A stretch of 64,000 bases of DNA from an uncultured Chloroflexia bacterium (GTDB lineage: Bacteria; Chloroflexota; Limnocylindria; Limnocylindrales; CSP1-4): positions 1,344,001 through 1,408,000 of the forward strand of contig CAWHDR010000001.1 in assembly GCA_963828165.1 (NCBI GenBank), given 5' to 3'. How positions within the stretch are numbered: position 1 is the stretch's first letter; each line of letters opens with the position of its first letter. Both the position numbers and the translations under genes were made by a program. Positions 5,093-30,249 of the stretch are shown here, one piece after another. The notes beneath the pieces were generated by a model, which saw nothing but the letters and a program-made list of their open reading frames with translations, searched no databases and was not told where the DNA came from.

Positions 5093-5179
5093 GTCCGCAA
5101 ACTACATGGAACCGACGACGCCGGATGCGGGACTTTCGAACTGGTGCGTACCGGCACCGCGGCGCGCTAGCATCCCGGC

Positions 5180-6631
5180 GTGTCACTGAACCGACTATGG
5201 ACGTTCCTGGCCGTTGCCCTGCCCGTCCTGGCAGCGCTCCTTGCCAGCCTCTCGTCGGTCGATCTCGCCTACCATCTGCGTGCCGGCGATGAGATCGCCC
5301 GGACGGGCGCGATCCCGCGCGTTGACACGTGGACATTCACCGCGGACCGCCTTCCTTGGCTCGACCAGCAATGGGGGTCGCAGGTCATCCTCTCGGCGGT
5401 CTACCGTATCGCTGACTGGACGGGCCTCGCGCTGGTTCGAGCGGGGCTCGTGGGCGTGGTCTTCACGGCAATACTCTCGATCGGGCTCCGACGCGGCCTG
5501 TCGCCGAGGAACGCGGGGCTCCTGACTCTCGGCGCGTTCGCCGTCGCGGCGCCGGCACTCGCGCTTCGGCCGCAGTTGCTGGGCATGGCCTGCTTCGCGA
5601 TCCTGCTCGTTCTTGTGTCGGAGCGGCGCCGCCATCCGGCCGCTTTCTGGGCGATCCCCTTCCTGGTGCTCGTGTGGGCGAACCTCCACGGTAGCTTCTT
5701 CCTCGCGCCCGTCGTGCTCGGCCTCGCCTGGCTCGACGACGTGGCCGAACGCCGGCCTGGAGCGCACCGGACGCTCCTCATCGCGCTCGTGAGCGTCGCG
5801 GCGTCGTCCTTGACGCCCTTTGGTCCCGCCGTGTGGGGCTACGCGGTCGGGCTGTCGACGAACCCTGAAGTGGCAAGCCGTATCACGGAATGGCAGCCGC
5901 CCACGATCCGGGATGGGACCGGCATCCTGTTCTTCCTGTCGGTCGCCGCGGTCGTCATGTTGATGGCACGGAGCGGGCGCGCCGTTCCGTGGCCCACCCT
6001 GGCATGGATCGGCGTGTTCGCGGCGCTCGGGCTCTACGCGCAGCGCGGCCTCGCCTGGTGGTCGCTCGCGGGTGCCGTGGCGGTCATCGGCCTGCTCCCA
6101 CCGGCCGCTGATACACCCGAGCTCGTAACGCCTCCGACCCTGCGGCGTCTCAACGTCGCCGTGGCGGCGATACTGGTGCTGGCCGGTATCGCGCTGCTCC
6201 CGATGTGGCGCCCGATCGAGGCGGGGACCGGAGTGCCGGTCGGCGTCCTGACGGACGCGCCGCCGGGCGTCACGGCCGCCCTCCGAGGTGCGGCGCAACC
6301 CGGTGACCACGTCTTCAACCCACAGCCGTGGGGCTCATGGTTCGAGTTCGCGCTGCCGGACCTGAAGGCGGGACTCGATTCCCGGATCGAGTTCTTTCCG
6401 ACCGTGGTCTGGGAGGACTATGAACTGGTCGTGGCGGGAGGCGCCGGCTGGGAGGAACGCCTGGCCGCGTGGAAGGTGTCGATCGTCGTCGTCCAGGCGG
6501 CGGATAGCGGCTTCCGGGATCGGCTGATCGCCGCCGGCTGGACGAGAGGTCTACGACGACAACGAGGGCACGATCCTCATGGATCGGCGACTCCGGTGCG
6601 CTCGTCGCTGCGTTGCACGCTTGGCCCATGA
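5180..6631 (+). CDS. Polytopic membrane protein, probable GT-C glycosyltransferase
   Basis: DLAYHLRAG, W-DQQW, LRPQ, LWANLHGSF, ITEW and DSR motifs. C-terminus probably frameshifted near 6545. Confidence 0.65.
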   Translation: MSLNRLWTFLAVALPVLAALLASLSSVDLAYHLRAGDEIARTGAIPRVDTWTFTADRLPWLDQQWGSQVILSAVYRIADWTGLALVRAGLVGVVFTAILSIGLRRGLSPRNAGLLTLGAFAVAAPALALRPQLLGMACFAILLVLVSERRRHPAAFWAIPFLVLVWANLHGSFFLAPVVLGLAWLDDVAERRPGAHRTLLIALVSVAASSLTPFGPAVWGYAVGLSTNPEVASRITEWQPPTIRDGTGILFFLSVAAVVMLMARSGRAVPWPTLAWIGVFAALGLYAQRGLAWWSLAGAVAVIGLLPPAADTPELVTPPTLRRLNVAVAAILVLAGIALLPMWRPIEAGTGVPVGVLTDAPPGVTAALRGAAQPGDHVFNPQPWGSWFEFALPDLKAGLDSRIEFFPTVVWEDYELVVAGGAGWEERLAAWKVSIVVVQAADSGFRDRLIAAGWTRGLRRQRGHDPHGSATPVRSSLRCTLGP

Positions 6632-14100: not shown

Positions 14101-15214
14101 AACCGGGCGCTCTCGCGACCGTTCGCCATCGGGGATCCCTCCCGTCCGGTCTCGCGGCCCAGAAGTGGTGTGTCTTTGCGTGGGCGCATCGGGGTGGGCA
14201 AGGCCAGCGATGGCTCCGAACAGCGGCTAACCGCTGCGTACGGCGCACCGGCGTGGTCGAACGAGATAGGGACGGCTGAGCGATGGGCCACACGACGGGC
14301 GCCAGTGCGGCCAGCAGCACCGTGAACCAGTTGATGTTCACGACCGGCGACCCAAGCAGCATCGTGAGGACGGCCATGGAATAGGCAGGCCCCGGCCGAT
14401 CGCGCAGGAGCCAGATCGCGACCAATCCGGCCACGAGGGCGACCGCAGGCAGCAGGTGCGCAAAGCCTGGGTCCACGCCGACGAATCGAGCGATCCCGGC
14501 GAGGCTCAGGTCGCTCGTCCCGGTGGCGGAGGTCTGTCGGACGATCCCGAGGTATTCGACATGGGTCGAGAGGCCCGCGCCGAGCACGCTCACTGCGGCG
14601 ATCGCGAGCCCGCCCACGACGAAAGCTCGAACTGCTGTCCAGCGTCGCTGCGTGATGAGCCACCACACCAAGACGACCGGCGTGAGCTTGAGCGCGGTCA
14701 TCCCGGCGATGACGACCCCCGCGCCGATGTCATTACGCCGGGTCAGCAGGTACCACGTCCCCACGATCCCGCCGATGAGCAGGGAGTTCAGGTTCCCGAC
14801 GCCGATGTCGTACACGATCGGGATCGACAGCAGCAGGACCGCGAGCCCGATCAGGATCGGCCGTCGCCGCATCATCACCAGGATGGTCACGACGAGCGAG
14901 GCGATGCAGATCGCCCACCAGACGTAGGGTCCCAGGTCGTTCGGGATCAGCGCGAGCGGCCGAAAGAGGACCGCGATGGGCGGCGGAGACAGCAACGGCA
15001 CAGTCCAGAAGGGCGGTTTCAGGTCGACCGGCCGATCGCCCGGAGAAAGGGCGTAGAGCAGATGCCCGTCGTTCAGTCGCTCGCCCGCGGCCAGGTACGT
15101 GAAGGCATCACCGGGGATGAAGCCGCGGTTGAAGTACACGACCTGGATCGTCACCACGACGCCGATCGCGAGTGCCGGGATCAGGAGCCGGAGGATCCGC
15201 ATGGTCGCTGACAC
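14051..15214 (-). CDS. Glycosyltransferase family 87-like membrane protein
   Basis: GDAFTYLAAGERL..G..LY, LSPPP, VGN and KLTP motifs. True stop may be nearer 14200. Confidence 0.75.
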   Translation of the reverse strand: MSATMRILRLLIPALAIGVVVTIQVVYFNRGFIPGDAFTYLAAGERLNDGHLLYALSPGDRPVDLKPPFWTVPLLSPPPIAVLFRPLALIPNDLGPYVWWAICIASLVVTILVMMRRRPILIGLAVLLLSIPIVYDIGVGNLNSLLIGGIVGTWYLLTRRNDIGAGVVIAGMTALKLTPVVLVWWLITQRRWTAVRAFVVGGLAIAAVSVLGAGLSTHVEYLGIVRQTSATGTSDLSLAGIARFVGVDPGFAHLLPAVALVAGLVAIWLLRDRPGPAYSMAVLTMLLGSPVVNINWFTVLLAALAPVVWPIAQPSLSRSTTPVRRTQRLAAVRSHRWPCPPRCAHAKTHHFWAARPDGRDPRWRTVARAPGSLDVTLMRAACPRYGE

Positions 15215-15337
15215 GCACCCATGCTATCCAAGCGGCGGACCGCCATGCCCGGGCCGGACGTACTGAGCGGCCATGCCATGCACCTCGGTACCTTCGGCGG
15301 GTTGCCTGTAGGCACCGGGGTGCCACACTGGACACCC

Positions 15338-16069
15338 ATGCCGGAAGAATCCACCCGGGAACCGCTCGTCGCCGTGATCATGCCCGCGCTCAATGAGGCC
15401 GGCAAGATCGGTCGCGTGCTGGACAAGATGCCCATGGACGGACGCTTCGAGGCCATCGTCGTGGACGACGGATCGAGCGATGGCACGGCCGATGAAGCCC
15501 GCGCTCACGGCGCCGCGGTCGTGGTCAGGCACGACCAGCGACAGGGCGTCGGAGCGGCGATCCGCGATGGCTGGAAGGAAGGCGTGGCTCGCGGCCGGCC
15601 GTACCTCGCTCTCCTCTCGGGCGATGACCAGCACGTCCCGTCGGAGCTCGGCCCGGCGCTGGACGCGCTCCTTGCCCAGGACGCGGACTACCTGCAAGGC
15701 TCGCGCTGGATGGCCGGCGGCCGGCTCATCGGTGGCAACGTCGGGCGGGCGCGTGGCACCAAGATTTACTCGCTGGCCTTCAGCCTGCTCGTGGGCCGCC
15801 GGGTCACGGACGCCACGAACGGATTCCGGATCTTCCGCCGCGAGCTGCTCGATGACGCGAAGGTCAACCTGGACCAACGCTGGCTTGACAGCTACGACCT
15901 GGAGCCATATGTCTTGTATCGGGCGATCACGAGGGGCTACCGGGTGATCGAACACCCATGCACCGTCGTGTACCACGCCGCTGAGTCCTACTCGAAGATG
16001 CGCGGCCTCAAGGACTGGTGGCGGCTGTTCCGCCCGGCACTCTTGCTCAGAACGGGGATGAAACGATGA
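15338..16069 (+). CDS. GT2 DPM1-like polyprenol-phosphate glycosyltransferase
   Basis: IMPALNE, VVDDGSSD, GDDQH and DATNGFR motifs. Confidence 0.9.
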   Translation: MPEESTREPLVAVIMPALNEAGKIGRVLDKMPMDGRFEAIVVDDGSSDGTADEARAHGAAVVVRHDQRQGVGAAIRDGWKEGVARGRPYLALLSGDDQHVPSELGPALDALLAQDADYLQGSRWMAGGRLIGGNVGRARGTKIYSLAFSLLVGRRVTDATNGFRIFRRELLDDAKVNLDQRWLDSYDLEPYVLYRAITRGYRVIEHPCTVVYHAAESYSKMRGLKDWWRLFRPALLLRTGMKR

Positions 16070-17058
16070 CGAACGGTCCGATCGAGCGCTCCTTTGGTGC
16101 TCGCCGAATCCTCGTGACCGGCGGCGCCGGGTTCGTCGGGGCCGCCGTGACCCGGCGCCTCGTGGATGCCGGAGCGCGCGTGACGGTCCTTGACGACCTC
16201 TTCACCGGCAAGGCCGACGCCATCCCCACGGGCGCCAGCTTCGTCCAGGGCTCCGTCACCGACGTGCCACTCATCAACGAGCTGGTCGGCGACCACAGCC
16301 TGATCCTGCATCTCGCTGCGCGGAACATCATCGCCTCGACCGCGAACCCGCTCGACGATTACGCGACGAACATCGGCGGCACGCTGAACGTGCTCATGGC
16401 TGCCCGCGCCTCCAAGGTGGACCGGGTCGTGTATTCGTCATCGGCATCGGTCTACGGCAACCCGCGCAGCATCCCGATCAACGAGGACGATCCGCTCTGG
16501 ACGCTGTCTCCGTATGCCGTCAGCAAGCTCGGCGGCGAGAACTACTGCACGGCGTTCGCTGAGAGCTACGGGCTGCGCGTGACCACGGTTCGCTACTCGA
16601 ACGTCTATGGCCCGGGCCAGCGGCCGGACAACCCCTACTGCGGTGTCGTCTCCAAGTTCCTCGTCGAGGCGTATGCCGGACGGCCGATCACCATCCACGG
16701 AGACGGCGAGCAGACCCGCGACTACACCTACATCGACGACGCCGTCGAGGCGACCCTGCTCGCCGCGGTCCACCCGCGCGCGGAGGGCGAGGTGTTCAAC
16801 GTGGGCACCGGCATCGAGACGTCGGTGAACCGCCTGGCGGCATCGATCGGTGAGGCGCTCGAGGTCGAGATCGACCTGCGCCACGTAGACCGCCGCGACA
16901 TCGACAACATCCGCCGCCGCGTGGTCAACATCGAGAAGATCCGCCGCATGCTGCGGTGGACGCCCCAGTGGACGCTCGACCGCGGCCTCGTCGAGACCGC
17001 CAACTGGTACAAGGCGTCGTCGTTCGCTGAGGTCGGGAGCGCCTCGCAGGAGCGCTAG
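16066..17058 (+). CDS. NAD-dependent nucleotide-sugar epimerase/dehydratase
   Basis: TGGAGFVG, SSASVYG, YAVSK and GDGEQTRD motifs; ATGA overlap with the upstream GT2. Confidence 0.92.
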   Translation: MTNGPIERSFGARRILVTGGAGFVGAAVTRRLVDAGARVTVLDDLFTGKADAIPTGASFVQGSVTDVPLINELVGDHSLILHLAARNIIASTANPLDDYATNIGGTLNVLMAARASKVDRVVYSSSASVYGNPRSIPINEDDPLWTLSPYAVSKLGGENYCTAFAESYGLRVTTVRYSNVYGPGQRPDNPYCGVVSKFLVEAYAGRPITIHGDGEQTRDYTYIDDAVEATLLAAVHPRAEGEVFNVGTGIETSVNRLAASIGEALEVEIDLRHVDRRDIDNIRRRVVNIEKIRRMLRWTPQWTLDRGLVETANWYKASSFAEVGSASQER

Positions 17059-17063
17059 AGGCG

Positions 17064-18129
17064 CTAGACGCGGCTGGTCGCCCAGTAGCGTTCGGCCGGC
17101 CCATCGATGCCGCCCATGACCCCCATCGCCTTGCCGTAGGCCCGCACCGCGTCGCCCATCTCGCGCGTGCCGTCGAAAAGGCGATCGATCTGGCTCTCGT
17201 ACAGGCTGATGCCCGTGATCTTGCGTTCCATCTGGTCGCCGATGTCGGCGTAGGTCGGGAAGATGCTCACCTCGGTGGGCAGCGTGGCCACCACTTCCGC
17301 GCCGAGGTCCTCGAGGCGGTTGAAGTCGTTCCACCACGAGTACGGGAAGTCCTCGTAGAAGACGATCTTGCCCGCGTAGTCCGGTCCGGGCATCACCCAG
17401 CGCCTCGCATCGTGGAGCAGCGCGACGCCCACGTCGCGGCAGAGCTGATGGTCCACGTGCCCGCCCACGCCGAGCGGCAGGTAGACCTTCTGTGGTTCAA
17501 GCCGAACGATCTCCTGGCGCAAGAGGTCGAACGGTGCCGTGTCATCGCGGCGCGGTGAGCCCAGCAGCTGGTCGTCGCCCTCGTATCCGCGGAAGACCGC
17601 GTCAGGCAGGTCGAGGAAGACCACGGACGCCTCGGAGAAGTAGGTGAATCGCTCGTCCTCGAGCCGGCGACGGGCCATGAGATCGCCCGGCGACCGCGGC
17701 ATCGACGACTTCCTCGGTGAGGACCGCCCCCTGGGTCGGCAGGTCGTCGATGACCGGCTGGCCGGCCAACGACTCGGCGCGGATGCTGGCCCGGCGATAC
17801 CACGACGAGCGCTGCCAGAAACGCTTGGCCGCCTGGTCGGCTTCGACCTGGGTCGCCTCGAGCGACTCGTCGTCGGCCAGCCACGCCGGCCAGATCGGGT
17901 AGTCGGGCAGGATCCCGGCGCGGTTGAACGCCTCGGTGGACGGCCAATGCGCCTTCGAGCCGAAGCCCAGGGCTTCGCGCTGGTACGGCGTCAGACCCTC
18001 GCCCGCGCCGTTGCCCGAGAAGACCGTCACGATCGTCACGTTCTGTCCGAGCTCCCGCAGGCTCGCGATCAGGCCGCCGCACGAGAGGGCGACGTCGTCG
18101 GGATGCGGCGCGACGAACACGTGGGTCAT
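17064..18129 (-). CDS. PIG-L family deacetylase; one frameshift near 17690
   Basis: APHPDD motif, RRLED, GGHVDH, FYEDFPY and YESQ. Confidence 0.85.
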
Positions 18130-18190
18130 GGCCGGCCGAGTATACCGAGCGCCACTGGCCCGCCGCCGGTCACCCTCGGGCACCGACCAG

Positions 18191-18880
18191 TCAGAGGAAC
18201 GGGTCGAAGCGCTCGTCCGGGAAGCCACCCGGGCCGATGAGCGGCACGAAGACGCACGCGCCATGCGCGGTCTCCACCCAGTCGTTGCCGTGGCGAACGG
18301 CGAGGGTCAGGATCTGCCGGTTGCGCGGCCCGACCGGGATCACGAGCCGGCCGCCGTCGGCGAGCTGGTCGCGCAGCTCGACCGGGATGGCCGGCGCGGC
18401 CGCGGTCACGATGATCCCGTCGTATGGGGCACCGGCCGGGTCACCCAGGCTGCCGTCCGCGACACGGATCTCGACCGAGCCCGGGAGGTCCAGCGCCGCG
18501 ATGCGTTCCCGCGCCTGCTGCGCGAGCTCCGCATGCCGCTCCAGGCTCAGCACGTCGGCACCGAGCGCGGCCAGGATCGCTGCCTGGTAGCCGGAGCCGG
18601 TCCCGAGCTCGAGCATGCGATCGCCCGGCCGTGGCGCCAGCAACTCCGTCATGCGCGCAACGATCCAGGGCTGGCTGATGGTCTGACCCGCATCGATCGG
18701 GACCGCCTCGTCGGCATACGCGCGACGCCGGTAGCGCTCGCCGATGAACCATTCCCGCGGGATCGCGGTCATCGCCTCGAGCACGCGTTCGTCGCGGATA
18801 CCGCGGGCCCGGAGCTGCTCTTCGACCATCAGCGCTCGTTGGCCGGCCGTGATTTCGGTGGCGCCTTCCTCGGTCCCCAT
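18191..18880 (-). CDS. pcm: Protein-L-isoaspartate O-methyltransferase
   Basis: QTISQP, LELGTGSGYQAA, APYDGIIVTAA, GGRLVIPVG and FVPLIG. Confidence 0.95.
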   Translation of the reverse strand: MGTEEGATEITAGQRALMVEEQLRARGIRDERVLEAMTAIPREWFIGERYRRRAYADEAVPIDAGQTISQPWIVARMTELLAPRPGDRMLELGTGSGYQAAILAALGADVLSLERHAELAQQARERIAALDLPGSVEIRVADGSLGDPAGAPYDGIIVTAAAPAIPVELRDQLADGGRLVIPVGPRNRQILTLAVRHGNDWVETAHGACVFVPLIGPGGFPDERFDPFL

Positions 18881-18906
18881 GCGGGCAGGATAGGCCGGGC
18901 TGCGAC

Positions 18907-19620
18907 CTACGGGCTGGGTGAGGCCGAGGGCGCCACCGATGGCGCTGCCGAAGCCGATGTCGACGGCGCCGCGGACGCGGGGGCCGACGATGAGACCGAC
19001 GGGCCGGCCGATGCCGGCGCCGAAGCCGACGCTCCGGCCGAGGCGCTCGCGGACGGCGCGGCGGACGGACTCGGACTCGGGGTCGCGATGGGCGTGAGCA
19101 ACCCACCATTGCCCAGCAGCAAGCCGTTCAGCAGGATCGCAACGAAGACCGCGACCGCTGCGATCACGAAGAGCTTCGAGACGTCCTCGCGGACATGGAC
19201 GGCCTTCTCGGACGGGCTTGGGACGTGGGCCGGGGCCACTTGGGGGCCGCGCCGCTTGGTGGGAATGGTCGCCGCACCGGCGCCGGCTGCCGCCGCGGCG
19301 GGGGTCACCGACTCACCGGCGACTTCGCGAACGGCCGCGTCATAGTCGTCGGGCTCGTCGGGCTCTACGTCGTCCTCGTCCTCGTCGCCGGGCCCTACCC
19401 CGTCCTCGTCGTCGGCGTCGAGTCCATCGTCGTCGGCGTCGAGTCCATCGTCGTCGGCCGCGAGTCCTTCGTGGTCGGACTCGATGCTTTCATCGCCGGG
19501 CTCGACATCCGCGTCACCGGGCGAGGCCGCTTCGGTGGCATCCGCCTCGGCAGCTTCCAGCGCATCGACATCGGGGTCAGTCGCGTCGGGATCGGGCGTG
19601 CCCGCGGGTCGGTCGGTCAT
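18907..19620 (-). CDS. Hypothetical membrane protein with acidic N-terminus, one TM helix and S/A/P-rich tail
   Basis: 237-aa ORF with low-complexity composition and a clear TM helix. Confidence 0.7.
   Translation of the reverse strand: MTDRPAGTPDPDATDPDVDALEAAEADATEAASPGDADVEPGDESIESDHEGLAADDDGLDADDDGLDADDEDGVGPGDEDEDDVEPDEPDDYDAAVREVAGESVTPAAAAAGAGAATIPTKRRGPQVAPAHVPSPSEKAVHVREDVSKLFVIAAVAVFVAILLNGLLLGNGGLLTPIATPSPSPSAAPSASASAGASASAPASAGPSVSSSAPASAAPSTSASAAPSVAPSASPSP
19406..19467. repeat. 21-bp tandem repeat, 3 copies (third imperfect), encoding GL(D/A)ADD(D/E)
   Basis: TCGTCGTCGGCGTCGAGTCCA at 19406 and 19427; variant copy at 19448. Confidence 0.9.
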
Positions 19621-19734
19621 CCGTTCGTCGTCACTCCTTGCGCACGGCCAGCCACGAGCGCCTGTGGTTGGCGGCGGGCGCCAGTGTACCCGGCAGACCG
19701 TTGGCGCTCCGGCTGATTGCCAGATCTGCCTGGG

Positions 19735-21921
19735 TCAGGCCTCGCGCACCGCCGGCACGAACAGGCCCACGAGCCCGGTGAACATCGTCAGCAGCCCGAA
19801 GGCCACCAGGACGATGGTGACCCCGACCACCTCCGTGAGGACTCCGCCGACCGCCATGGCGAACGTCATCGATCCGAACACCAGCGCACTCCGGAAGCCA
19901 GCCACGCGGCCCAGGAGCTCCTGCGGCGTCCGTTCCTGGAACAGCGTCTGGCTCGGGATCAGGAAGACCATGTTGGCGATGCCGGCCCCGAACGCGAAGC
20001 CGAGCACAAGCACGAGGTTGCCACTCAACGCGAGCAGGGTGATGAGGAGGCCGAAGAACGCGTAGCCCGCGATGATCATGTGGCCTTTGGCGAACCGCAT
20101 GCCGATGAGGCCGATGACGAAGCCGCCCAGCAGGTTGCCGGCACCCTGGCCGGTCTCGATGAAGGCGTAGACGGCCTCCCATCCGAGCGGGCCTTCGCCG
20201 AACATCTCCCTGGCGAAGACCGGTGTCAACGCGAGCAAGACGCCGACCGTCAACTGGGCGACAGCCGCCTGGATGGTGTTGGCCAACAGCACGGGTTCCC
20301 CGCGGAGGAATCGCCAGCCGGCCTTCATCTCGCCGAAGAACCCGGGGGCGTCGTCGACGGCGGCGGCCGCGACCGGCATGGCGACCGGCTCGGGGCCTGG
20401 CGCGTCGAGGACCGACTGGACGTCACGGACCATCGAGTCGATGGGCTTGTCGTCAGCGGCGACCTCGGTCGCTTCGTCCGTGGCCCCCGCGTGGCTTCGG
20501 GCGTGGACCACGATCGTGCCCAGGAGGATCGCGGAAGCCGCGTAGGTTGCCGCGTCCAGCCAGAACGCGATCGGCAATGCCGGGCCCAGGGCGGCGACGA
20601 AGAGGCCCGCCAGGGGATAGCCGATGACGTCGGCCAGGGTCTCGCCGACCCACAGGGCCGAGTTCGCCGTCAGGAGCTCGTCCGGGCGGACGATCTGCGG
20701 CAGGATCGCGATGCGCGCCGGGCGGAAGAAGATCGAGATCGTGGTCAGCACGAAGACCAGCGGGTAGACGAGGATGATATTCGTCACGATGGCTATCGGG
20801 ATCAACAGCACGGTCGCCGCGCGCAGAAGGTCGCTCACGACGAGGACGTCCTTATGGTCCCAGCGATCGACGAGGGTACCGGCGATCGGGCTGAACAGGA
20901 GGTTCGGAAGGGTCGCCGTGACGAACACCAGGGCCGTCGCGAGCGCCGATCCCGTCGTGACCAGCACGGCCGCCGCCAGCGCGAGCTGATGGATCCGATC
21001 GCCGAACAGCGAGATCAGCTGTCCGGCCCACAACGAGGTGAATGAACCGTTGAGCCCGAGGCGGACATACGGGTGCGCGCGGACGCGCTCCAGCACCTCG
21101 GGAGAGGGGAACGGAAGGGTGATGGTCGGGGTGGCGCTCGACTCTGCGCGCTCGATGTAGGCGCCCGGCAGCGGCGCCAGGGCCGGCGCCGCAAGTCCCG
21201 GTGCCGAGCCGCCGAGCATCCTGGGTCGTTGCAGCCCGGCCGTTCCCCGCAGCGACGGCGTCAAGCCGGTCTCGGCGGGGACGCCACGACCCGTGCCCTG
21301 CCTCGGGAGGCGAGCCGTCCCGGCCAGGCCGGCGAGCCGCTCGTAGACCGCGGCCTCCTCGCGCTCCTCGACCTTCGTCGGGACACGGACGACAGCGGCG
21401 AACAGGAAGAACGCCAGGCCGGCGGTGAGGAACAGGTCGCCGAGCGAGGCGACGTTCTGGATGATCGGGATCGGGATCGGGATGATGTCGCCGAGGACCA
21501 GCGCCCGCAGGAAGAAATCGGAGGCCTCGCCCGGCACGATGATGTGCAGCGCGCTCGTCACGTCCTGGGGAGTGAGCCCGGCGGCGTCCAGGCTGGTAGC
21601 CCAGATCGGCATGTAGCCGCCATTGAGCACGATGACCATCCCGTTGAGCAGCACGCCGACGAACGTGACGCTGAGCCCCGGGTAGAACCGGTTGACCCAC
21701 AGGCCGATCAGGAGGAGAACGAACCCGGTCGCGAGTAGGGGGGCGCGCAGCATGTCGACGACGTCGACGCCCGCGTTCAGCAGGGCCTCCGTCCCGAATC
21801 GGACGATGACGGCCGCGACGAGCAGCAGCGGCCAGCGCAGCTGGATGTTGCCGAGATTGTCCAGGCGCCCACCCGCCCGGAGGCCGAGTAGCAGACCGAG
21901 AAGGATCCCCGCGATCAGCAC
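19735..21921 (-). CDS. DUF5317-MFS transporter fusion protein
   Basis: N-terminal ~180 aa has the DUF5317 pattern (GG.L.NL...LRW, N...PG, NGG.MP, LGDII, SLGD). A ~100-aa linker follows, then a DHA3/MFS_3-like permease (LWAGQLISLFGD, GTLVDRWD). Single uninterrupted 728-aa ORF. Confidence 0.85.
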   Translation of the reverse strand: MLIAGILLGLLLGLRAGGRLDNLGNIQLRWPLLLVAAVIVRFGTEALLNAGVDVVDMLRAPLLATGFVLLLIGLWVNRFYPGLSVTFVGVLLNGMVIVLNGGYMPIWATSLDAAGLTPQDVTSALHIIVPGEASDFFLRALVLGDIIPIPIPIIQNVASLGDLFLTAGLAFFLFAAVVRVPTKVEEREEAAVYERLAGLAGTARLPRQGTGRGVPAETGLTPSLRGTAGLQRPRMLGGSAPGLAAPALAPLPGAYIERAESSATPTITLPFPSPEVLERVRAHPYVRLGLNGSFTSLWAGQLISLFGDRIHQLALAAAVLVTTGSALATALVFVTATLPNLLFSPIAGTLVDRWDHKDVLVVSDLLRAATVLLIPIAIVTNIILVYPLVFVLTTISIFFRPARIAILPQIVRPDELLTANSALWVGETLADVIGYPLAGLFVAALGPALPIAFWLDAATYAASAILLGTIVVHARSHAGATDEATEVAADDKPIDSMVRDVQSVLDAPGPEPVAMPVAAAAVDDAPGFFGEMKAGWRFLRGEPVLLANTIQAAVAQLTVGVLLALTPVFAREMFGEGPLGWEAVYAFIETGQGAGNLLGGFVIGLIGMRFAKGHMIIAGYAFFGLLITLLALSGNLVLVLGFAFGAGIANMVFLIPSQTLFQERTPQELLGRVAGFRSALVFGSMTFAMAVGGVLTEVVGVTIVLVAFGLLTMFTGLVGLFVPAVREA

Positions 21922-22000
21922 GGGATCATGATGCTGGAGCGGGGGGTGCCGGCGTCAGGAGGAAACCGCGCGATGCAGCGCGATCGCACCGGACCCCGGA

Positions 22001-23414
22001 TCAGACGCGCTCGGTCGCAGACTTGGCGGTCTGGGTCGCCTCGACCGGGGTGGAGCTGGCCATCCGGGCCGCCGCCTGGCCGATGAGGGGGATCGGCTTC
22101 GGCTGGAACGTGCCGCCCGGGTCGACGACTCCTTCGACCCAGTGCGTCTTGACGAAGGCGTCGACGACAACGGGGTCGAACTGGATGCCCGCGAACTTGC
22201 GCAGCTCGCCGAGGGCCTGTTCCAGTGTCAAGGGGGTCATGCGATACGGGCGCGCGGCGGTCATGGCCTCGAAGGCGTCCGCCACATGGAGGATCCGAGC
22301 GAGTTTCGGGATTTCGTCACCGATCAGTCGGTCCGGATAACCCGAGCCGTTGTACCACTCGTGGTGGTGCCGGATGATCGGCAGCTCGGGGGCCAGCTTG
22401 GTGACCGGCGCGATGATCTGCGCGCCAAGCACTGGGTGCGAATTCATGACCATGCGCTCGTCCCTGGTCAGCCGTTCTGCCTTCTTGAGGACGCTGTCCG
22501 GCACGCCGATCTTTCCGACATCGTGGAGCAGGCCGCCCCATTCGAGGGCCTCGAGCTCAGCGTCGCCGACCCGCATGACGCGCCCGATATCTACGGAAAT
22601 CTCTTTCACCCGGACGGAGTGCTTCGAGGTGTACGGATCGCGCTTGTCGACGGCCTCCGCCAACGCTCCGATCGTCTGCGTGAACATGTCGCGCATCTCG
22701 ACGAAGCGCTCGTACCTAGGCGCGTGGTGTACAGCGGGAGCTGCAAACAACGCCGTAGCCCACCAATGGACAGTTCGTAAACAAGGGCCATCAGCCACGC
22801 CAATGGGGCGAGAGCGAGATCACGGCGCTCGAGATGCCTCGCGAGTCACCTATCAAGACGCCTAGTACTGTTCTGCCCAGTGCGCAACCAAGCGAGCAGA
22901 TTGAGGTCAACAGCGAAGTTGGAAGACATGAAAAGGCGGCCGCGACCATTGCAGTGACGAACTCAGCAACGGGGCCGCCCCAGATCAACATGAGTCCCTC
23001 GCGGAGCGTTCCCGCTAGGACCGCCGGGATGACCAACCCAGCGTGATTGGAAAGAGTGCCGTACCAGGGAATGCGCCCGCGAATCTCGCGAATCTCGGTT
23101 GTGCCCACCGCGGCGACCCACACGCCAACGGCCGGCCCCCCAAGGACATCGACGGCCATGATCGGTGCGACCGCGACCGCTTACGTGCGTCCCTCGTGGC
23201 AGCCGGACAGGAAATGCAGACGCCAATGAGCGTGAGAATCGTCCAGAACGCCACACCCAGCAAATACTCAAGTTCCGTTGGGTCTGATGGGGGCGTTGAC
23301 GTCGAGCCGAGCCGCGATCCCATGATCGGGCGGGAAAACGAGTGTCGTGGCAATCAGTGCAAGCGCACCACGGCCACGACACCGTGCGATATAGAGCTTG
23401 AGAGACTTCGGCAT
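22001..23414 (-). CDS. HD-GYP cyclic-dinucleotide phosphodiesterase with N-terminal multi-TM sensor; 5' half frameshifted
   Basis: LLHDVGK, HHHEWYNGSGYP, ADAFEAMT..RPYR and QFDP are intact. Start MPKSLKLYI at 23414; TM fragments in ORFs 23015..23353, 22791..23159 and 22606..22803. Confidence 0.9.
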
Positions 23415-23486
23415 TCTTAGGCCTGTGCGGTCAGCATCCTGATGACTGTAGCGCCTAGTTGGCGGAACAGTCATGGGCTGTCGGTA

Positions 23487-23577
23487 CTAAAAGCCCTTGA
23501 GCGATGCTCCTCCAGCAAGCGCGATCAGTCCCGACGCTTGTGAGCGTCATCGCGATGCGCATGAATCGGGCTTTCAT
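23487..23577 (-). CDS. Putative ~29-aa peptide precursor MKARFMRIAMTLTSVGLIALAGGASLKGF (after removing one base near 23530)
   Basis: ATG 23577 to TAG 23487 spans 91 nt. The first 16 codons and the last 13 codons plus stop lie in frames one base apart. The corrected product has a basic N-region, hydrophobic core and short tail. Not in the ORF track. Confidence 0.65.
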
Positions 23578-23660
23578 GTGAGTGGTACCTACCAGCCCTT
23601 ATGCGGAGCTATTGGGAGCCACGCTCGTTCCTCCTTTGCGGCCCTCGCATCCCTGGGGGA

Positions 23661-23695
23661 ACACGAAAACCGACCTGACTCTTGGTCGGTCGGTT
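23661..23695 (-). terminator. Intrinsic terminator / riboswitch expression platform
   Basis: Minus strand ACCGACC-aagagtca-GGTCGGT followed by TTTCGTGTT. The 3' arm can alternatively pair with AACCGACC at the aptamer 3' end. Confidence 0.65.
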
Positions 23696-23760
23696 GCACT
23701 AATCGCTCTGCCTCACCCCAAGTGCCCATTTCAGGTGTGGCTTCTGCGCGTCCGAGCGTA
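23685..23760 (-). ncRNA. c-di-GMP-II-like riboswitch aptamer
   Basis: Minus strand cggacgcgcaGAAGccacacctgaaaTGGGCACTTggggtgaggcaGAGcgattAGTGCAACCga carries the class II hallmarks: GAAG, UGGGCACUU, GAG, AGUGCAACC and the GCACU/AGUGC pseudoknot. It lies upstream of an HD-GYP gene. Confidence 0.8.
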
Positions 23761-23803
23761 TTTGCCTTGCTTCCTAGTACTGGGGTACTAGCAAGTAACC
23801 GGG

Positions 23804-23833
23804 ACCTTAAGGATGTCGTACCTGTACGGTCAA
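23804..23833 (-). promoter_or_regulatory. Putative sigma70-type promoter for the riboswitch-peptide-HD-GYP unit
   Basis: TTGACC (23833-23828), 18-nt spacer, TAAGGT (23809-23804). Confidence 0.5.
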
Positions 23834-23853
23834 TACGGCACCTTACCTATCCG

Positions 23854-26800
23854 CTACAGCGAATCAAGCGAAGGGGTTCGACGCCGAGCTCCTCGCGCAT
23901 GAACGTGGCGTAATGGGCATATTGCTCAGCTGCCGCCGCATGGGCTCCGCTCACGCGATACAGGCGGAGCAATGAAACCTCGATCTGTTCGGCCGTTTCA
24001 TCCACATCTAGTGCGCGCCTCGCGATGCGGATGCCACGGTCGTAGTGACCCGAGGTGAAGTCGTCGAGGACTGACCGCTCGACGATTTCCAGATAGGTCG
24101 CGTGGAGCGAGTCGCGATATGCACTGGCCCATTCCTCGTACTCGAAGTCGAGTGCGAAATCGCCCGCGGTAAAGAGGCGTGAGCCGCTCCACGTCGTCGG
24201 GGCTGGGATGCGGCGGCAAGTCGCGGACCACTCGCCGGCAATCGACGCTCCTGGCGGTAACGAGCTCTGGATCCAGCCAGATCACGTCGGAGTCGTGGTG
24301 GACGTACCCGGGCGACAGGTCTTCCGAGTACTGCTCTTCGAACACGCGTCGCAGGAAGTACAGCGTTTGATTGAGCGAGTTGATCGCGATCTCCGGGTCC
24401 AATTCTGGCCACAGAGCATCAAGAACCTGGTCCCGCGTCGCGGACATCTCGGGCTTGTGATAGTAGGAAGCACAGAAGCGCGAGGACCTTTCTCCGCACG
24501 GAAGTCCCGGCGATGTCGCGCTCGCCTACACTGAGGCTTACTCTGCCTTGGTCCTCGATCTTGGACCCGAGGCGCGAGTCTCGCGCGAGCGATCGGCCGA
24601 GGTTCGCTGCCTCTCTTGTCCGCCCGCTAGATTTTGCGAACCGTCGAAGCCGAGGGATGTCGGAATTATCGCCGATCTCCTCGAGCAGACTAGCTGCTGC
24701 GACGTTCATCGATCCCTCGTTCGGGAGATAGCGATTCGCGTAAAGCTCGTCTGCCATCTCTCAGGGTGCATAGCGGCGGCATGCGCTACAGAGGTCTTGC
24801 GACTCGGAACTTAAAGACGCGAGTCGAGATCGCCAGGAGGTCCGCCAGAAACGTCAGGTGCCATGGATGAGAAGTGCCAATGGTGCGGATGGCATCATCC
24901 AGCGCTTCGCGGCCAGAGGCTATACCCACCGAGCAGTTCTCCGACGCGACGCATCGAATCGGCGCCTTGCGCGGCCGCCTGTGCGGTGGCCCGTCCAGCC
25001 GAACTCCCAGCGTCCTGATCGCCTCGGGCAACTTTGAGGTAAGCGTGAGTGACGGCAAGAAATGCGTCCTGAGCAACCACCGTTGGCAGTCCGGCTGGAT
25101 AGTCGGCCAAGGCTTCTGCGGCTTCATCGAACCGCCTCTGCCTCAAGTACAGCTTTGCCCTTGTTAGGGCCAGCAGCCGCCGATCGGCCCTTGTGATCGT
25201 CGACTGATGCCCAACTCGGTCAAGGATCGCCAATGCGGACGCGCGCGACGCGAATGTGTCCAGAATTTCGGCTGCCTCCGCATATGTCTCGTTGTGTAAG
25301 TGGCCCGCCTCAGCATCCAGAAGGGAATCGATCAACTCCCTTGCTTGTTGGATGCTGCCGAGCCTCGCGAGAATCTGGGCCTTCGCCATCGTCGCCGAAG
25401 CGAGCTCCATCAGGCCCGAAGCAGCTCTCGAATGCGTCCAGCGCTTCCTCAACTTCCCGTCGCCGCATCCTGAAGTCGATCCTGGATGATGGAGTTGTAG
25501 GCCAAGTTGGCCATCGTGACTGCGAAATGGTGCGGGCGGTCCGTCCTCTGGTCGCGCGCCATGGCGCGGAGCCGCCGATTGATCGCATCGATGTCAGATG
25601 CCGTCCTCGCGTGAAGGATCGCAACCGTGACCTCCGCGATCGAACCGAAGATTTGGTCTGTGGTGTCCGTGAGTCTTTCTGCCAGGATCAACGCTCGGTC
25701 GCCATCGCCGGAGTTGAAGTACAGCGTCACCAAGTTCAACAGCGCGTGGTCGCGCTGGACCGGGTCGGTCGTTGGCGAGTCGAGGACGGCCTGTGATGCG
25801 GCGATCGCGGCTTGGTAGTCGCCGTGCTGCATATCGACGCGGCTGAGGATGAGGTCGAAGCCGGGTGGACGCAGTTCGGCAGGGATCGGTCCGATGAACG
25901 TTTCGGCGAGGGCGTATTGGCCCTTCCCCATGATCGTCGGGATCGCTTCGCCGACCACCTTCAGGACCGCGTCCGTGTCGCCCGCCTCGCGGTAGTGGTA
26001 CGCGGCGATCCGCCAGTCCGTGACCGCGGCGGCCGCCGCCGTCCGCCGATGCAGGTCGGCGACCGCGGCCGCTCCGTCCGTGGTGCGAAGCCGGGCCTCG
26101 AGGAACTCGCGCACGAGCGGGTGATACCGCTGGTGCGTCCTTGGCCCACCCGACAGACGGCTCAGGAGTGTCAGTCGCTCCGCGGCTGCCGTGAGTCGCG
26201 CGACCTCAGCCGGTTCGCGATTCGATACGACCTCTGCGAGATCAGGTGTGACGACCTGGAGGATCGACGTTTCCATGAGGAAGCGCTGCAGGTCGTCGTC
26301 GAGATCGCCGACGACTTCCTCGGCCAGGTAGTCGTACATCTCGTGGTCTGCGCCGTTGAGGCTCCGAACGAATCGACGGATCTCCGAAGGGGTGCGGTCA
26401 CGTAGTGCTGCCTGGACGAGCTGCAACGACGCGATCCACCCCTCGGTCCGAACCGCCAGATCCGCCAGGACGTCGGCGTCCAGGCGCCGTCCGTACGTCT
26501 CCGTGAACAGCTGTGCGGTCTCGGATGGGTCGAATCGAAGCTCGCCCGTCCCGAGCTCCGCCACTTCACCGACCGCTCGCAGCCTGGCCAACGGCACCGA
26601 CGGTTGCCGGCGGCTCGCGAACACGATGGTCAGGCGCTCAGGCGCCCGCGCGAGGAGCTCGCGGGTGATATGCCGCACATCGGCTGCGTCATCAACCAGG
26701 TGGAAGTCGTCCAGGATCAAGACCGCGCCATTCGCCGTGATCGTCGGCAGCTCGCGGATGAAGCTGTCGAGCACGACCTCCCGCCCGGGACCGCTCGCGG

Positions 26801-27323
26801 CGATCTCAGACAGCAAGCCGACGGTCGCCGGCGCAAATGTCGGATCGTGCTCCCGGCCCGCGGCGACGAGATGGTGCAGGAACGAGACCCAATCGCGATC
26901 GTCATCGTCCAGCCGGTACCACAGGGTCCGCATCCGGGACCGACGCGAGAAATCGGCCAGGAGGGTCGTCTTGCCGTATCCGGCATCGGCGAGCACGAGG
27001 ACGACGCGCCCGTGCACCTTCGCGTGCAGCCAATCCAGCAGCCGCGGCCGTTCGAGGGTTTGATCGCGCAGTGCGGGACGCTGGACCTTTGCCAGCTGGA
27101 TGGGGAAGCCGTTGACTTCGTCGCGCAGCGGGCCGCTCCTGGGTTGGGCGGGATCCGGCCCCCGCCCGGGACCTACGGGGATCGGCGACCGCTCCGGTAC
27201 GGGGCGCAGGGATGGGCGAGTCTCGGGCCGGCCGAACGATAGAGACCGTTCATGTGGGGTGTCAACGACCGGATCCGGGGGATGGAGGTGCCGCATGCGC
27301 GCATGGTGGCGCGCGACGCTCAA
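23854..27323 (-). CDS. Large MalT-like STAND ATPase / TPR regulator with C-terminal winged-helix + BTAD (SARP-type); 3' part frameshifted
   Basis: AKVQRP..R.RL, ADAGYGKTTLL, LILDDFH, TEGW, YDYLAEEV and RYHPLVREFL. C-terminal fragments RRKVLALLCFLL, TRDQVLDALWP, LNQTLYFLRR and ELGVEP. Start uncertain. Confidence 0.85.
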
Positions 27324-27341
27324 CCCGCGATTAGCTGCGAG

Positions 27342-27545
27342 TCAGCCCTCGTACTCGAAGCCGATCTTGACCTCGACGCGGTATTCGACGATCTCGCCGT
27401 CCGCGACGACGGCGCTCGATTTCACGACCTCGACCGTCTGGATATTGCGCACGGTCTTCGAGGCGGTCGCGACGGCCTGACGGGCGGCGTCGCTCCACGA
27501 TTTGGGGCTGGTCCCGACCATCTCGCGGATGATGATGACGCCCAC
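27342..27545 (-). CDS. Dodecin family flavin-binding protein
   Basis: EMVGTS..SW.DA...AV..ASKTVRNI...EV......DG.I.EYRV..KIGF; GGAG upstream. Confidence 0.9.
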   Translation of the reverse strand: MGVIIIREMVGTSPKSWSDAARQAVATASKTVRNIQTVEVVKSSAVVADGEIVEYRVEVKIGFEYEG

Positions 27546-27612
27546 GGGTGCTCCTCCTGGTCGGTCGGCTTCGGGGCGCTCATCATGCCACGAGCCGGCC
27601 CGTCGGCCAGCG

Positions 27613-30249
27613 TCACGACGAGGGTTCGGGGGCCACCGCGGGTGTGGGCGGGAGGACGTGGGTTAGCCATTCGCTGAGGCCGTTGACCCGCTCTCGCCTT
27701 TCGAGGCGATCCCAAGGACCCGGCCGTTCAGTCGTGCCTTGTCGATGGGGCTCAGGTCCTGGGCCGTCAGGACCAGGATCGGGATCGCGGACGTGGCCTT
27801 GGCGCCGCGCAGCTGCGTGACGACCTCGAACCCGTCCACCTCCGGCATCATCAGGTCGCAGATCACGAGGTCGGCACCGCCGCTCTGCGCGAGCTCGATT
27901 CCTTCCTGGCCGGATGAGGCTCGCCGGACGTGAAGCCGAGCGGACTGAGGGTGCCTTCGACGATATCAAGCGCGGCGGGATCGTCGTCGATCGCAGGACC
28001 GTCATCGACCGGGTCTTCACCTTGGTCGTGAACGTGTACCGCCCGAATCGATCGAGCAACGCATCCGGGTCGACCGGCTTCACGAGGTAGTCGACGGCGC
28101 CGAGCGCCAGGCCGACGCCGCGTTCGTCACGACGTCGCGATGATCACTGGCACGTCGCGCAGCGCCTGATCCGACTTCAGCTGGCGCAGCACCTCCCAGC
28201 CATCGATCCCGGGCAGCAGGATGTCCAAGACGATCGCCGCCGGCCGCTGGGCGCGCACGAGCGCGAGGCCGGTCTCGCCATCCGGTGCGACACGAACGCG
28301 GTGGCCGGCATTGGTGAGGTAGGTCTGGAGCAGGCGCGCGGAGCTCGCTTCATCCTCGATGACGAGGATGTCGCGAGACTTCGAGGCCGTAGGTCGCGTC
28401 GCGCAGGACGACGCCCGGGTCGGCCGGGGCCTCGATGGGGTGCCAGTCCGGGAGGATCACGGTGAAGCGTACTCCCCGATCCGACGCTCCGATTCGAGCT
28501 CGATCCGGCCGCCGTGCGCCTCGACCAGGCGCCTCGTCAGGGCGAGCCCGAGACCGGTCCCGGTGATCTGCTGCGACTGCTCGCCGACCTGGCGGAACTC
28601 CTCGAAGACGCGCAGCTGGTCCTCGGGGGCGATGCCGACGCCGTCGTCCTGGACGGTGATCCGCACCTCGCCACCTCCACGCGGAGCCGGTGACGCGGAT
28701 GCTGCCGCCCTCCGGCGTGTACTTGATCGCGTTCGACAGGAGGTTGTACAGGATCTGGCGCAGGCGCCCGGGGTCGGCATCGAGCGTGATCGCCCCGTCG
28801 ATGGATACCTCGACCGGCTGGTCGCTTGCGATCGGCCAGGGGACGCATGCCCGGCGACGGATGCCGCGAGCGCGTGACCCAGGTCGACCGGCTCGATGGC
28901 GAGCTCCAGCCGTCCGGCCTCGACCTTGGCGAGATCGAGGATGTCGTTGATCAGCGTCAGCAGGTGCTCGCCGCCGCTGCGGATGTGCTCGACCCACTCG
29001 CGTGGGACCGGGAGTGTTCCATCGACCTCTTCGAGCCCGGCCATCAGCGAGCTGAACCCGTTGATGGCGTTGAGGGGCGTCCGCAGCTCGTGGCTCATGC
29101 TCGCGAGGAAGTCGCTCTTGGCGGCACTGGCGGCCTCGAGCGCCGATACCGTGTGGGCGAGCCGCACGCTGAGCGCCTCTTGCTCGGCGAGGGCCTCGCG
29201 GCGCTGGACCAGGTGGGCCGACCGGATGCCGAGCGCCTCGACGAGGACCGCATCGTCCGCATCGAACAGGCTCGGGCGTGGGCGCAGCAGGACGACCGCG
29301 CCCATGAGCGTCTTGCTCTGGAGCGAGCGGCACGACCTTGGCGAACCGGCACTCGCTCCGTGCCGAGCAGATCCGCGATGACGGGATCCGAAAGACCGCC
29401 GCGCGTCACGCTGGCCAGGCCTCCCGCGTAGGTGTTCCCGGGCGCGACGCCGTCATTTGAGCTCGCGACGACCCGCACGTCGTCGTCGTCCTGGACGAGC
29501 ACGACCGTGGCGGCGCCGGTGAGCTGGGCGGCGGTCCTTGCCAGCTCGCCCCATAACTCGGAGGCGGGTGTCGCGGGCGACGCCGCCAGGAGACGTTCGC
29601 TGTGGCCGAAAGCGGCAGTCCCCTGCCAAAAGCGGCGCAGGTATCGGGGAGGCAGGAACGCGATCCAGTAAGCCACGGCCGCCGACAGGGCCACGACGCG
29701 GAGCACGACCCCCGCGGCCGCGGTCGCGTCCGGGCCGGCAGCCGACGACGCGATCGCGAGGAGCGATGCCGCGACGGCGGCCGTGGCCAGGGCTGCCACG
29801 GCCAGGCGGACCCGTGCCGCGCCGCTCCGGCGCCGAGCCTCGCCAACGAGGTACCCGGCCGCGACGAGCTCGGTGATCACGAAGATACCGATCCCCGCCA
29901 GGATGACCGGGATCGCGCCGCCACTGAGCACGATGGCGACGGAACTGATGGCGACGGCGCCGATCGCAAGCGGCAGCAGCCACGCGGGCAGCCCGCGGAC
30001 GTCGCTCACGAGCTTGAGGCTGAATACCGGCTGCGCGAGCAGGAAGATCGTCGAGGCGAAGCCGACCCATGTCGGGCAGGGGTCCGAGCAGGTCCGCCAG
30101 GACGCCCGTGGCCAGGAGTGCCGTGATCGGCGCGAAGACCAGCGCGACGTCGCGAGCCAGCACATCTCGATCGCGGATCGCGACCCAGACCGCCCACAGG
30201 AAGAGCAGGCCGAAGAGGACCTGGACGCGAGGGTCGGCAGATCGGACAT
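27613..30249 (-). CDS. Membrane hybrid sensor histidine kinase with two C-terminal receiver domains; frameshifted
   Basis: AKSDFLASMSHELRTPLN, NLLSNAIKYT, DDGVGI and GTGLGL; receiver motifs DILLPGIDGW and DLMMPEVDGF; multi-TM N-terminus. Ends approximate. Confidence 0.85.

Follow-up and report, generated by a model that had tools for sequence, protein, structure and literature searches.

A conserved aspartate pair in DUF5317, a transporter-fused membrane domain outside the LspA family and candidate peptide handler in a c-di-GMP module

Introduction

Here we ask whether DUF5317, a membrane domain that heads a transporter gene in an uncultured Chloroflexia bacterium, is an aspartic peptidase of the kind represented by signal peptidase II (LspA), and on what it might act. 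The gene lies in a stretch of 64,000 nucleotides (assembly GCA_963828165.1, contig CAWHDR010000001.1, positions 1,344,001 to 1,408,000), hereafter the window; coordinates are those of the window unless another locus is named. A first-pass annotation had proposed that two Asp residues of DUF5317 correspond to the catalytic dyad of LspA, and that the domain is an intramembrane peptidase for a neighbouring lipobox-like peptide. We find that DUF5317 falls outside the LspA family. The two Asp residues are nevertheless invariant, are predicted to face outward, and belong to a protein that is repeatedly encoded beside a conserved micro-peptide and enzymes of cyclic di-GMP (c-di-GMP) turnover. The reading that we favour, tentatively and at somewhat less than an even chance, is that DUF5317 is a candidate convergent aspartic peptide-processing protein that carries out an LspA-like cleavage of the micro-peptide. 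A literature search on DUF5317 and PF17248 found no paper mentioning the family.

A transporter-fused domain with an invariant Asp pair

The open reading frame (ORF) at 19735–21921 (−) translates into 728 residues, none of them Cys, and its first ~181 residues form the DUF5317 domain. Residues 25–173 match Pfam DUF5317 (PF17248) with an E value of 1.8e-23 (83.6 bits, cut-off 25), and in our alignment the domain holds every invariant column of its family. The motifs on which the first-pass annotation had built its proposal (VGVLLN, NGGYMP, LGDII and SLGD, together with NVASLGDLFLTAG) are all present in the translation of 21379–21921 (−). DUF5317 is here part of a fusion and not a free-standing gene: a linker of ~110 residues connects it to a transporter of the major facilitator superfamily (MFS), of the MFS_3/MFS_1 type. 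The transporter part (residues 292–728) scores 77.7 bits against PF05977 (cut-off 27; E 8.6e-22) and 77 bits against PF07690 (cut-off 33.4; E 1.7e-21); the nearest subfamily is TIGR00900 (DHA3; E 1.3e-52), at 179 bits, which is under the subfamily cut-off of 319.6. A Pfam scan of the 728-residue protein at E ≤ 0.1 returned nothing besides DUF5317, MFS_3 and MFS_1. The parts of the gene are the following.

21379..21921 (−), DUF5317 domain, residues 1–181 (Pfam PF17248, structure model, loop charge bias)
21607..21624 (−), NGGYMP motif, residues 100–105, at the outer end of helix 4 (conservation in 69 sequences)
21487..21489 (−), codon of D145 (in LGDII), first residue of hairpin strand 145–149 (invariant in 69 of 69 sequences; DSSP of the model)
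21436..21438 (−), codon of D162 (in S-L-G-D), third residue of the last helix, 160–178 (invariant in 69 of 69 sequences; DSSP)
21049..21378 (−), low-complexity linker rich in Ala, Gly, Pro and Arg, residues 182–291 (translation; no Pfam match there)
19735..21048 (−), MFS_3/DHA3-type transporter domain, residues 292–728, with the stop codon (PF05977, PF07690, TIGR00900)

The family is widespread. Our library of representative proteins holds 2047 DUF5317 proteins at E ≤ 0.001, and the domain occurs in 92 of the 301 sampled genomes of Chloroflexota (a tally that takes in one unpublished genome). The eighty loci taken from named genomes include ones in Chloroflexota, Bacillota, Thermotogae, Bipolaricaulota, Spirochaetaceae, Thermoleophilia and Fraserbacteria. 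The genome under study has three DUF5317 genes: the fusion in the window and two stand-alone paralogues.

Conservation converges on the two Asp residues that the first-pass annotation had singled out. An alignment of 50 relatives leaves G102, D145, P150, S159, G161 and D162 invariant. With other phyla added, G102, D145, S159, G161 and D162 are still invariant in all 69 sequences, and N77, G89, N93, N100, M104, P105 and P150 are near-invariant (97–99%). Within NGGYMP, the residues concerned are N100 (97%), G102 (100%), M104 (99%) and P105 (97%). The sole other invariant or near-invariant residues in the 69 sequences are small or polar and lie around D145 and D162. N156, the Asn of an 'NVA' motif, is conserved in close relatives only.

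Predicted structure and membrane orientation

The AlphaFold2 model of DUF5317 (predicted local distance difference test score (pLDDT) 93.1, predicted template modelling score 0.84) has helices at residues 2–15, 31–49, 59–76, 83–99 and 160–178, with a beta-rich insert (residues 100–159) that faces outward. DSSP assigns a hairpin to the end of this insert, with D145 in strand 145–149 and a second strand at 156–159, directly followed by the helix 160–178 that contains D162.

Averaged over the 69 sequences, loops 1 and 3 carry net charges of +2.39 and +1.09, whereas loop 2 has −0.87 and the insert 100–159 has −2.52. The fusion order in the window, DUF5317 and then transporter, is reversed at another locus (L072, 5884–7929 (−)), where an MFS domain is followed by a C-terminal DUF5317 (Pfam residues 516–651). 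Because of the loop charges and the two fusion orders, loop 1 and the C-terminus are predicted to be cytoplasmic and the Asp pair to lie outside. Given the MFS–DUF5317 order at L072, the short first helix (residues 2–15) may not cross the membrane. For the same reason we dropped the difference in helix count (five against four) as an argument against a relationship to LspA.

Comparison with LspA

The Peptidase_A8 (PF01252) hidden Markov model (HMM), which recognizes the genome's own LspA at E 5.4e-35, has no match in the 728-residue protein at E ≤ 0.1. For profile comparison with hhalign, LspA was represented by 25 sequences (this genome and 24 relatives) and DUF5317 by 50. The full profiles gave a probability of 7.9% across 18 N-terminal columns. 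When the C-terminal halves were compared, both Asp residues fell opposite LspA D106 and D124 with one gap (score 12.1, P 0.13); a reversed LspA profile, as a control, scored 9.1 (P 0.44).

Searches by structure listed no LspA either. Foldseek of the DUF5317 model against the PDB gave nothing at E ≤ 0.001 (best E 3.4). A VIA-wide search found generic helical bundles (top Z 8.4, root mean squared deviation 3.9, 73 residues aligned; Z 6.6 at rank 50), with no LspA among the best 50 matches, and VIA re-alignment of 87 Foldseek chains again gave generic helical bundles and no LspA. As a control, the model of the genome's own LspA (pLDDT 88.0) recovered 5DIR, 6RYP and 6RYO at E 2.6e-11 to 1.7e-9 and TM scores of 0.85–0.90. 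A search of PDB sequences with the single sequence reached only a ribosomal protein at E 1.3; hmmsearch of the DUF5317 profile against the PDB gave 0 matches at E ≤ 10; and the ESM Atlas returned DUF5317 clusters only, with no usable match once these were excluded. DUF5317 thus does not belong to the LspA family: the HMM and profile comparisons give no significant match, and the three fold searches list no LspA although the LspA control works. The structural similarity that the first-pass annotation had anticipated was not found in these searches.

What DUF5317 and LspA (A8, PF01252; 5DIR, 6RYO, 6RYP) do have in common is local. Both have an essential or invariant Asp pair 17–19 residues apart (17 in the window DUF5317, 18 in a DUF5317 paralogue, 18 in LspA) at the outer face of the membrane, a position that is predicted for DUF5317. 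One Asp belongs to the beta-hairpin that follows the penultimate helix, the other to the start of the last helix. In the LspA model the corresponding elements are helix 78–101, strand 104–112 (with D106), strand 115–120 and helix 122–138 (with D124). The candidate substrate of DUF5317, described below, also resembles that of LspA in being signal-peptide-like with an L-A-G-type motif. Unlike LspA, DUF5317 has a 45-residue insert between helix 4 and the hairpin and an extra N-terminal helix, and its large outward element belongs to another loop; the associated peptide lacks the Cys that would be lipidated, and the gene context is c-di-GMP signalling and not lipoprotein maturation. Of the proposed equivalence to the LspA dyad, the local element (hairpin strand and start of the last helix, predicted to face outward) stands, whereas homology and a shared overall fold find no support.

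Could DUF5317 still be a true, very distant LspA homologue, a second signal peptidase II? The hairpin–helix Asp motif, with its equal spacing and the same membrane side, would fit, as would a core that may have four spanning helices with both ends inside, as the two fusion orders imply. Against this stand the blank A8 HMM, the non-significant hhalign result and the absence of LspA from fold searches with a working control. In the 69 DUF5317 sequences nothing conserved corresponds to the Asn and Ala of FNxAD, to GNxxDR or to the N-terminal D and K of LspA, and the outward element is in a different loop. In addition, canonical LspA is already present in 26 of 26 genomes searched, that of the window included, and the peptide has no Cys to lipidate. 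True LspA homology is largely refuted, and we regard it as very improbable indeed.

The GxGD aspartic proteases (presenilin/signal peptide peptidase, A22, and prepilin peptidase, A24) were also considered and found no support: neither Pfam family matches at E ≤ 0.1, and the motif in DUF5317 is S-x-G-D with an invariant Ser. No presenilin or prepilin-peptidase chains were among the listed matches of the three fold searches (Foldseek, VIA-wide and its second look).

A conserved micro-peptide accompanies DUF5317

The first-pass annotation had spoken of a lipobox-like peptide next to DUF5317. We found no credible ORF with a Cys-containing lipobox within 15000–28000 of the window, so that a lipobox in the strict sense finds no support; a conserved, signal-peptide-like micro-ORF does, however, accompany DUF5317. 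Relatives of the window locus encode two micro-ORFs behind a c-di-GMP-II riboswitch. The first has 6–10 codons and ends in KGW or KGF. The second has 29–32 codons and is of the type MKHRLLRL(hydrophobic)LAGGASLKGF; it is intact in 9 of 11 relatives examined, with one variant and one (L060) masked by N. As a separate observation, micro-ORF 1 lacks a hydrophobic stretch, although its K-G-W/F ending matches the tail of the membrane peptide. It may serve as a leader, cause stalling, or imitate the membrane-peptide tail in the cytoplasm.

Across phyla the pattern is MKW...(~18 hydrophobic residues)...L-A-(A/S)-G-A-x-x-(K/R/E)-W-x. Of the 68 cross-phylum loci that have sufficient DNA upstream, 27 carry the peptide under a strict rule, although one of these looks false; applied to the opposite strand of these stretches, the rule gave 0 of 68. 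A looser rule added ~12 further loci. The peptide is therefore, as read from these sequences, real and conserved, and it resembles a signal peptide in which the lipobox Cys is replaced by Gly or Ala. A role as precursor of a lipoprotein is excluded.

Each of the genome's two stand-alone DUF5317 paralogues adjoins an intact peptide gene. At the first (L004), an intact 30-residue micro-peptide (MKSTLARLSWALTVLASLALTVGAGMRWSW; 4751–4843 (−)) is separated from the DUF5317 gene (5108–5671 (−)) by a c-di-GMP-I-GGC riboswitch (RF03167, 61.9 bits), peptide gene and riboswitch falling within L004 4751–4955 (−) (C1 ~748250–748454), and a 1469-residue MASE9-GAF-GGDEF-EAL protein is encoded upstream. At the second (L005), an intact 33-residue micro-peptide ending in ...LMAGRRWGP (5800–5901 (+), C1 ~801299–801400) directly follows DUF5317 (5160–5693 (+)), and no c-di-GMP enzyme was seen within 1.5 kb. 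Elsewhere, peptides also precede MASE9 genes that have no adjacent DUF5317.

c-di-GMP context

The operon of the window lineage runs micro-peptide(s), MASE9-HD-GYP phosphodiesterase, DUF5317-MFS. At its head in the window is the following element.

23679..23762 (−), c-di-GMP-II riboswitch aptamer (Rfam RF01786, 60.6 bits, gathering threshold 53.5, E 5.1e-11)

This riboswitch is common to 11 of 18 relatives. Downstream of the aptamer we noted a stem with a run of T and then the two micro-ORFs, a layout in which c-di-GMP may feed back on its own phosphodiesterase. At L072, a c-di-GMP-I-GGC riboswitch lies immediately downstream of the MFS-DUF5317 gene.

An HD-GYP gene is directly upstream of DUF5317-MFS in 18 of 18 same-class relatives. 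Among 29 further Chloroflexota loci, the adjacent gene encodes an HD-GYP protein at 14, a GGDEF-EAL protein at 1 and a BTAD regulator at 6, and a separate MFS_3 gene is found upstream at 4. The 80 cross-phylum loci have an adjacent HD-GYP (38), GGDEF/EAL (5) or other MASE9 protein (2), or a BTAD regulator only (18); at 12 there is none of these, 5 are cut by a contig end, and adjacent MFS genes number 0 of 80.

The common element of the adjacent enzymes is MASE9. The Pfam model places it at the N-terminus of 6 of 13 HD-GYP partners at E ≤ 0.01, 3 of these 6 being above the cut-off, and this model is insensitive in Chloroflexota (14 of 201 genomes). With a jackhmmer MASE9 profile nearly all adjacent HD-GYP proteins match, as do adjacent GGDEF-EAL proteins (that of the genome's own paralogue locus included) and histidine kinases. 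Among 14 control genomes, DUF5317 and MASE9 each occur in the same two, those of T. thermophilus and T. maritima. The gene directly upstream of DUF5317, here and in relatives, is of the same kind as the MASE9-HD-GYP phosphodiesterases T. maritima TM1467 and S. venezuelae HdgA, except that its MASE9 part appears decayed in the window.

In the available text of Galperin and Chou (bioRxiv 10.1101/2021.11.05.467447), MASE9 is defined as a sensor of unknown ligand, and ligand binding by MASE9 within the membrane is proposed; the same text has no mention of DUF5317 or of a micro-peptide neighbour. Nor is DUF5317 mentioned in the available portion of Al-Bassam et al. (Front Microbiol 2018, PMC6205966), on Streptomyces HdgA. 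A literature search on DUF5317, PF17248 and MASE9 found no paper that links DUF5317, the micro-peptide and MASE9.

Peptide processing or a stable complex

How might DUF5317 and the peptide work together? We infer that DUF5317 is the peptide-handling component of a module under c-di-GMP-riboswitch control, with peptide contact, catalysis and export as its putative steps. D145 and D162 would form an outward-facing site at the membrane boundary. The L-A-(A/S/G)-G-A motif of the peptide, at the outer end of its single helix, should sit at the level of this pair. DUF5317 would then cleave the micro-peptide and free its short conserved tail (x-x-K/R-W; S-L-K-G-F here), the fused or neighbouring MFS protein would export the tail, and the MASE9 enzyme or a BTAD/TPR regulator would be the receiver.

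Three lines of evidence suggest that DUF5317 acts on or with the peptide. First, the pairing of the two holds even without MASE9: where the neighbour is a BTAD gene, peptide and DUF5317 occur together and no MASE9 gene adjoins them. Second, the invariant, predicted outward Asp pair would be level with the small-residue motif of the peptide. Third, MFS is the sole fusion partner found, which recalls peptidase–exporter fusions.

Several observations weigh against processing. None of the searches made (Pfam, PDB by sequence and by profile, hhalign and the three fold searches) tied DUF5317 to a known peptidase by homology or by fold. The in-register LspA alignment (P 0.13) is not significant and no better than chance, and of the LspA invariants in the aligned segment the two Asp residues alone have counterparts. 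The peptide is conserved at both ends (MKW and K-W) in many phyla, which fits a stable subunit equally well. A stable membrane complex is a better fit than a processing enzyme to the abutting or overlapping HD-GYP and DUF5317 frames, and also to fusions that do without DUF5317: at two loci (L165, 1–2229 (−), and L168, 1–2211 (−)) single ORFs join MASE9, HD-GYP and MFS_3 in genomes without a DUF5317 match, and at L165 a 24-residue candidate peptide lies upstream of the fusion. In the window itself the peptide genes are broken and DUF5317-MFS is intact.

In an alternative reading, DUF5317 is a non-catalytic partner in a stable complex with the uncleaved micro-peptide and MASE9 (plus the tethered MFS in the window lineage). 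As co-sensor or adaptor, the complex would adjust c-di-GMP turnover or signal the state of the transporter, and the Asp pair would bind the peptide tail, a cation or another ligand. We consider this quite possible, if on the doubtful side, and rank it close behind the processing reading. Gene linkage tracks MASE9 regardless of output (HD-GYP, GGDEF-EAL or histidine kinase), the HD-GYP and DUF5317 frames meet as described (frames taken from stop to stop), and the MFS domain is joined to DUF5317 in some proteins and to MASE9-HD-GYP in others. Interface-anchor residues flank the peptide at its two ends (MKW...KW), it contains a motif of small residues suited to packing, and binding of a ligand within the membrane by MASE9, as proposed in the available text of Galperin and Chou (bioRxiv 10.1101/2021.11.05.467447), would agree with such a complex. 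When MASE9 (residues 1–250 of the L062 protein) and DUF5317 were co-folded, ipSAE was 0.39 (runs 0.43, 0.36 and 0.39; best control 0.00), contacts agreed by at least 89% between runs and partner pLDDT was at least 75. The tool grades this as 'weak support'. In its calibration, 58 of 80 solved complexes and 2 of 110 mismatched pairs attain the mark, but scores ≤ 0.60 account for only 7 of the 80 solved complexes and for both mismatches. Apart from the weakness of the co-fold by this calibration, the alternative has to contend with an invariant Asp pair amid invariant Gly and Ser, which is more typical of a catalytic or ion site, and with the BTAD-class loci, where peptide and DUF5317 occur and no MASE9 is adjacent.

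Small single-pass regulators of sensors or pumps are a known theme, as in MgrB-PhoQ, SafA-PhoQ, AcrZ-AcrB and KdpF. The peptide described here resembles them in being a single helix of ~30 residues encoded beside the membrane proteins that it would bind. They are lineage-restricted, whereas the DUF5317-linked peptide keeps its G-A-x-x-K/R-W end across several phyla and, unlike them, always stands beside DUF5317 or MASE9.

State of the module in the window and the role of the transporter

The sensory half of the module is damaged in the window, where the remaining parts are the following.

22001..22798 (−), HD-GYP c-di-GMP phosphodiesterase ORF, 265 residues, with HD and HHE..NGSGYP motifs (HD_5, E 1.7e-39)
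22783..23414 (−), remnant of the MASE9 membrane sensor in two further frames (−3 and −2) with an in-frame stop (tblastn; jackhmmer on the separate ORFs)
23455..23577 (−), micro-ORF 2, frameshifted (three-frame translation)
23599..23622 (−), micro-ORF 1, 7 codons, ended by a premature TAA (three-frame translation)
23931..27302 (−), fragments of a large BTAD-domain regulator in three frames, ~1166 residues in a relative (tblastn with the L070 orthologue)

The HD-GYP ORF is the intact 3′ part of a former MASE9-HD-GYP gene (frame −1); in tblastn with an intact orthologue, residues 211–451 match the HD-GYP part with 68% identity. Micro-ORF 2 begins as MKARFMRIAMTLTSV... in one frame, and its conserved tail, ...SGLIALAGGASLKGF*, continues in the next (23487–23534). 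The defects are clustered in 22783–27302 (−) between intact flanking genes, and GC content drops from ~0.67–0.74 to 0.57–0.63 across 22600–25800. A same-genus relative (L060) has no MASE9 at all. In the assembled sequence, this clustering of defects beside intact genes suggests that the module has been losing its sensory half in the genus; relatives, and the two paralogue loci of the same genome, retain an intact module. With the peptide genes, MASE9 and the regulator apparently decayed, only HD-GYP and DUF5317-MFS can still be working at this locus.

The survival of the fusion bears on a further alternative, that DUF5317 serves the MFS transporter as an accessory or gating domain (an ion or substrate site, for example) and acts independently of the peptide, the c-di-GMP genes merely regulating the transporter. 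In the window and in L060, MASE9 is broken or missing while DUF5317-MFS is intact with all invariant residues, and in the window the peptide genes are broken too. Among longer DUF5317 proteins, 29 of 29 are fusions of DUF5317 with MFS, with no other partner found; these were the proteins in which we sought, and did not find, fusions to HD-GYP or MASE9. At least 22 of 48 proteins scanned have DUF5317 with MFS. One 417-residue database protein (P0248) combines an HD_5 piece with a DUF5317 piece and may be a merged gene call. Most family members, however, are stand-alone DUF5317 proteins with no MFS in the vicinity, and linkage to peptide and MASE9 is far commoner than linkage to MFS (at the cross-phylum loci, adjacent HD-GYP 38 of 80 and MFS 0 of 80). 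We therefore hold a purely transporter-related role to be distinctly unlikely.

Two further genes lie downstream of the fusion gene.

18907..19620 (−), acidic single-pass membrane protein with a Pro/Ser/Ala-rich tail (no Pfam family; syntenic in 11 of 18 relatives)
18191..18880 (−), protein-L-isoaspartate O-methyltransferase (syntenic in 12 of 18 relatives)

Discussion

If DUF5317 does process the micro-peptide, as in the reading that we favour, the closest parallels are peptide-pheromone cassettes: AgrB/AgrD/AgrC, Eep with the SHP and sex-pheromone precursors, and the C39-peptidase ABC exporters. The DUF5317 module resembles these in having a gene for a small candidate precursor, a polytopic membrane protein whose acidic residues are invariant and a polytopic membrane sensor, as well as a TPR/BTAD-type regulator and, in the window lineage, an N-terminal domain fused to an exporter. 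It differs in that no membership of their families was found and in its output, which here is c-di-GMP turnover under a c-di-GMP riboswitch; cleavage and secretion would be putative steps. A stronger form of the processing idea, which we think rather unlikely as a whole, is that DUF5317 represents a separate family of aspartic peptidases in the membrane, whose LspA-like hairpin–helix Asp dyad arose independently and which cut a dedicated, Cys-less, signal-peptide-like micro-peptide at the outer membrane face, with the freed tail or the remaining helix as the ligand of MASE9 in an Agr-like circuit spread over many phyla.

The window itself is of lower value for pursuing these questions, its sensor and peptide genes being apparently decayed. 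For the family as a whole, the link between DUF5317, a conserved micro-peptide and MASE9-type enzymes provides a concrete candidate input for a sensor with no known ligand. Should the Asp pair prove catalytic, DUF5317 would represent a class of membrane peptidase not described before, one that ties peptide signalling to second-messenger control; and if both the peptidase and the MASE9 ligand reading hold, the module would amount to a peptide circuit of the Agr type, with c-di-GMP turnover as its output and c-di-GMP riboswitches as its gate.

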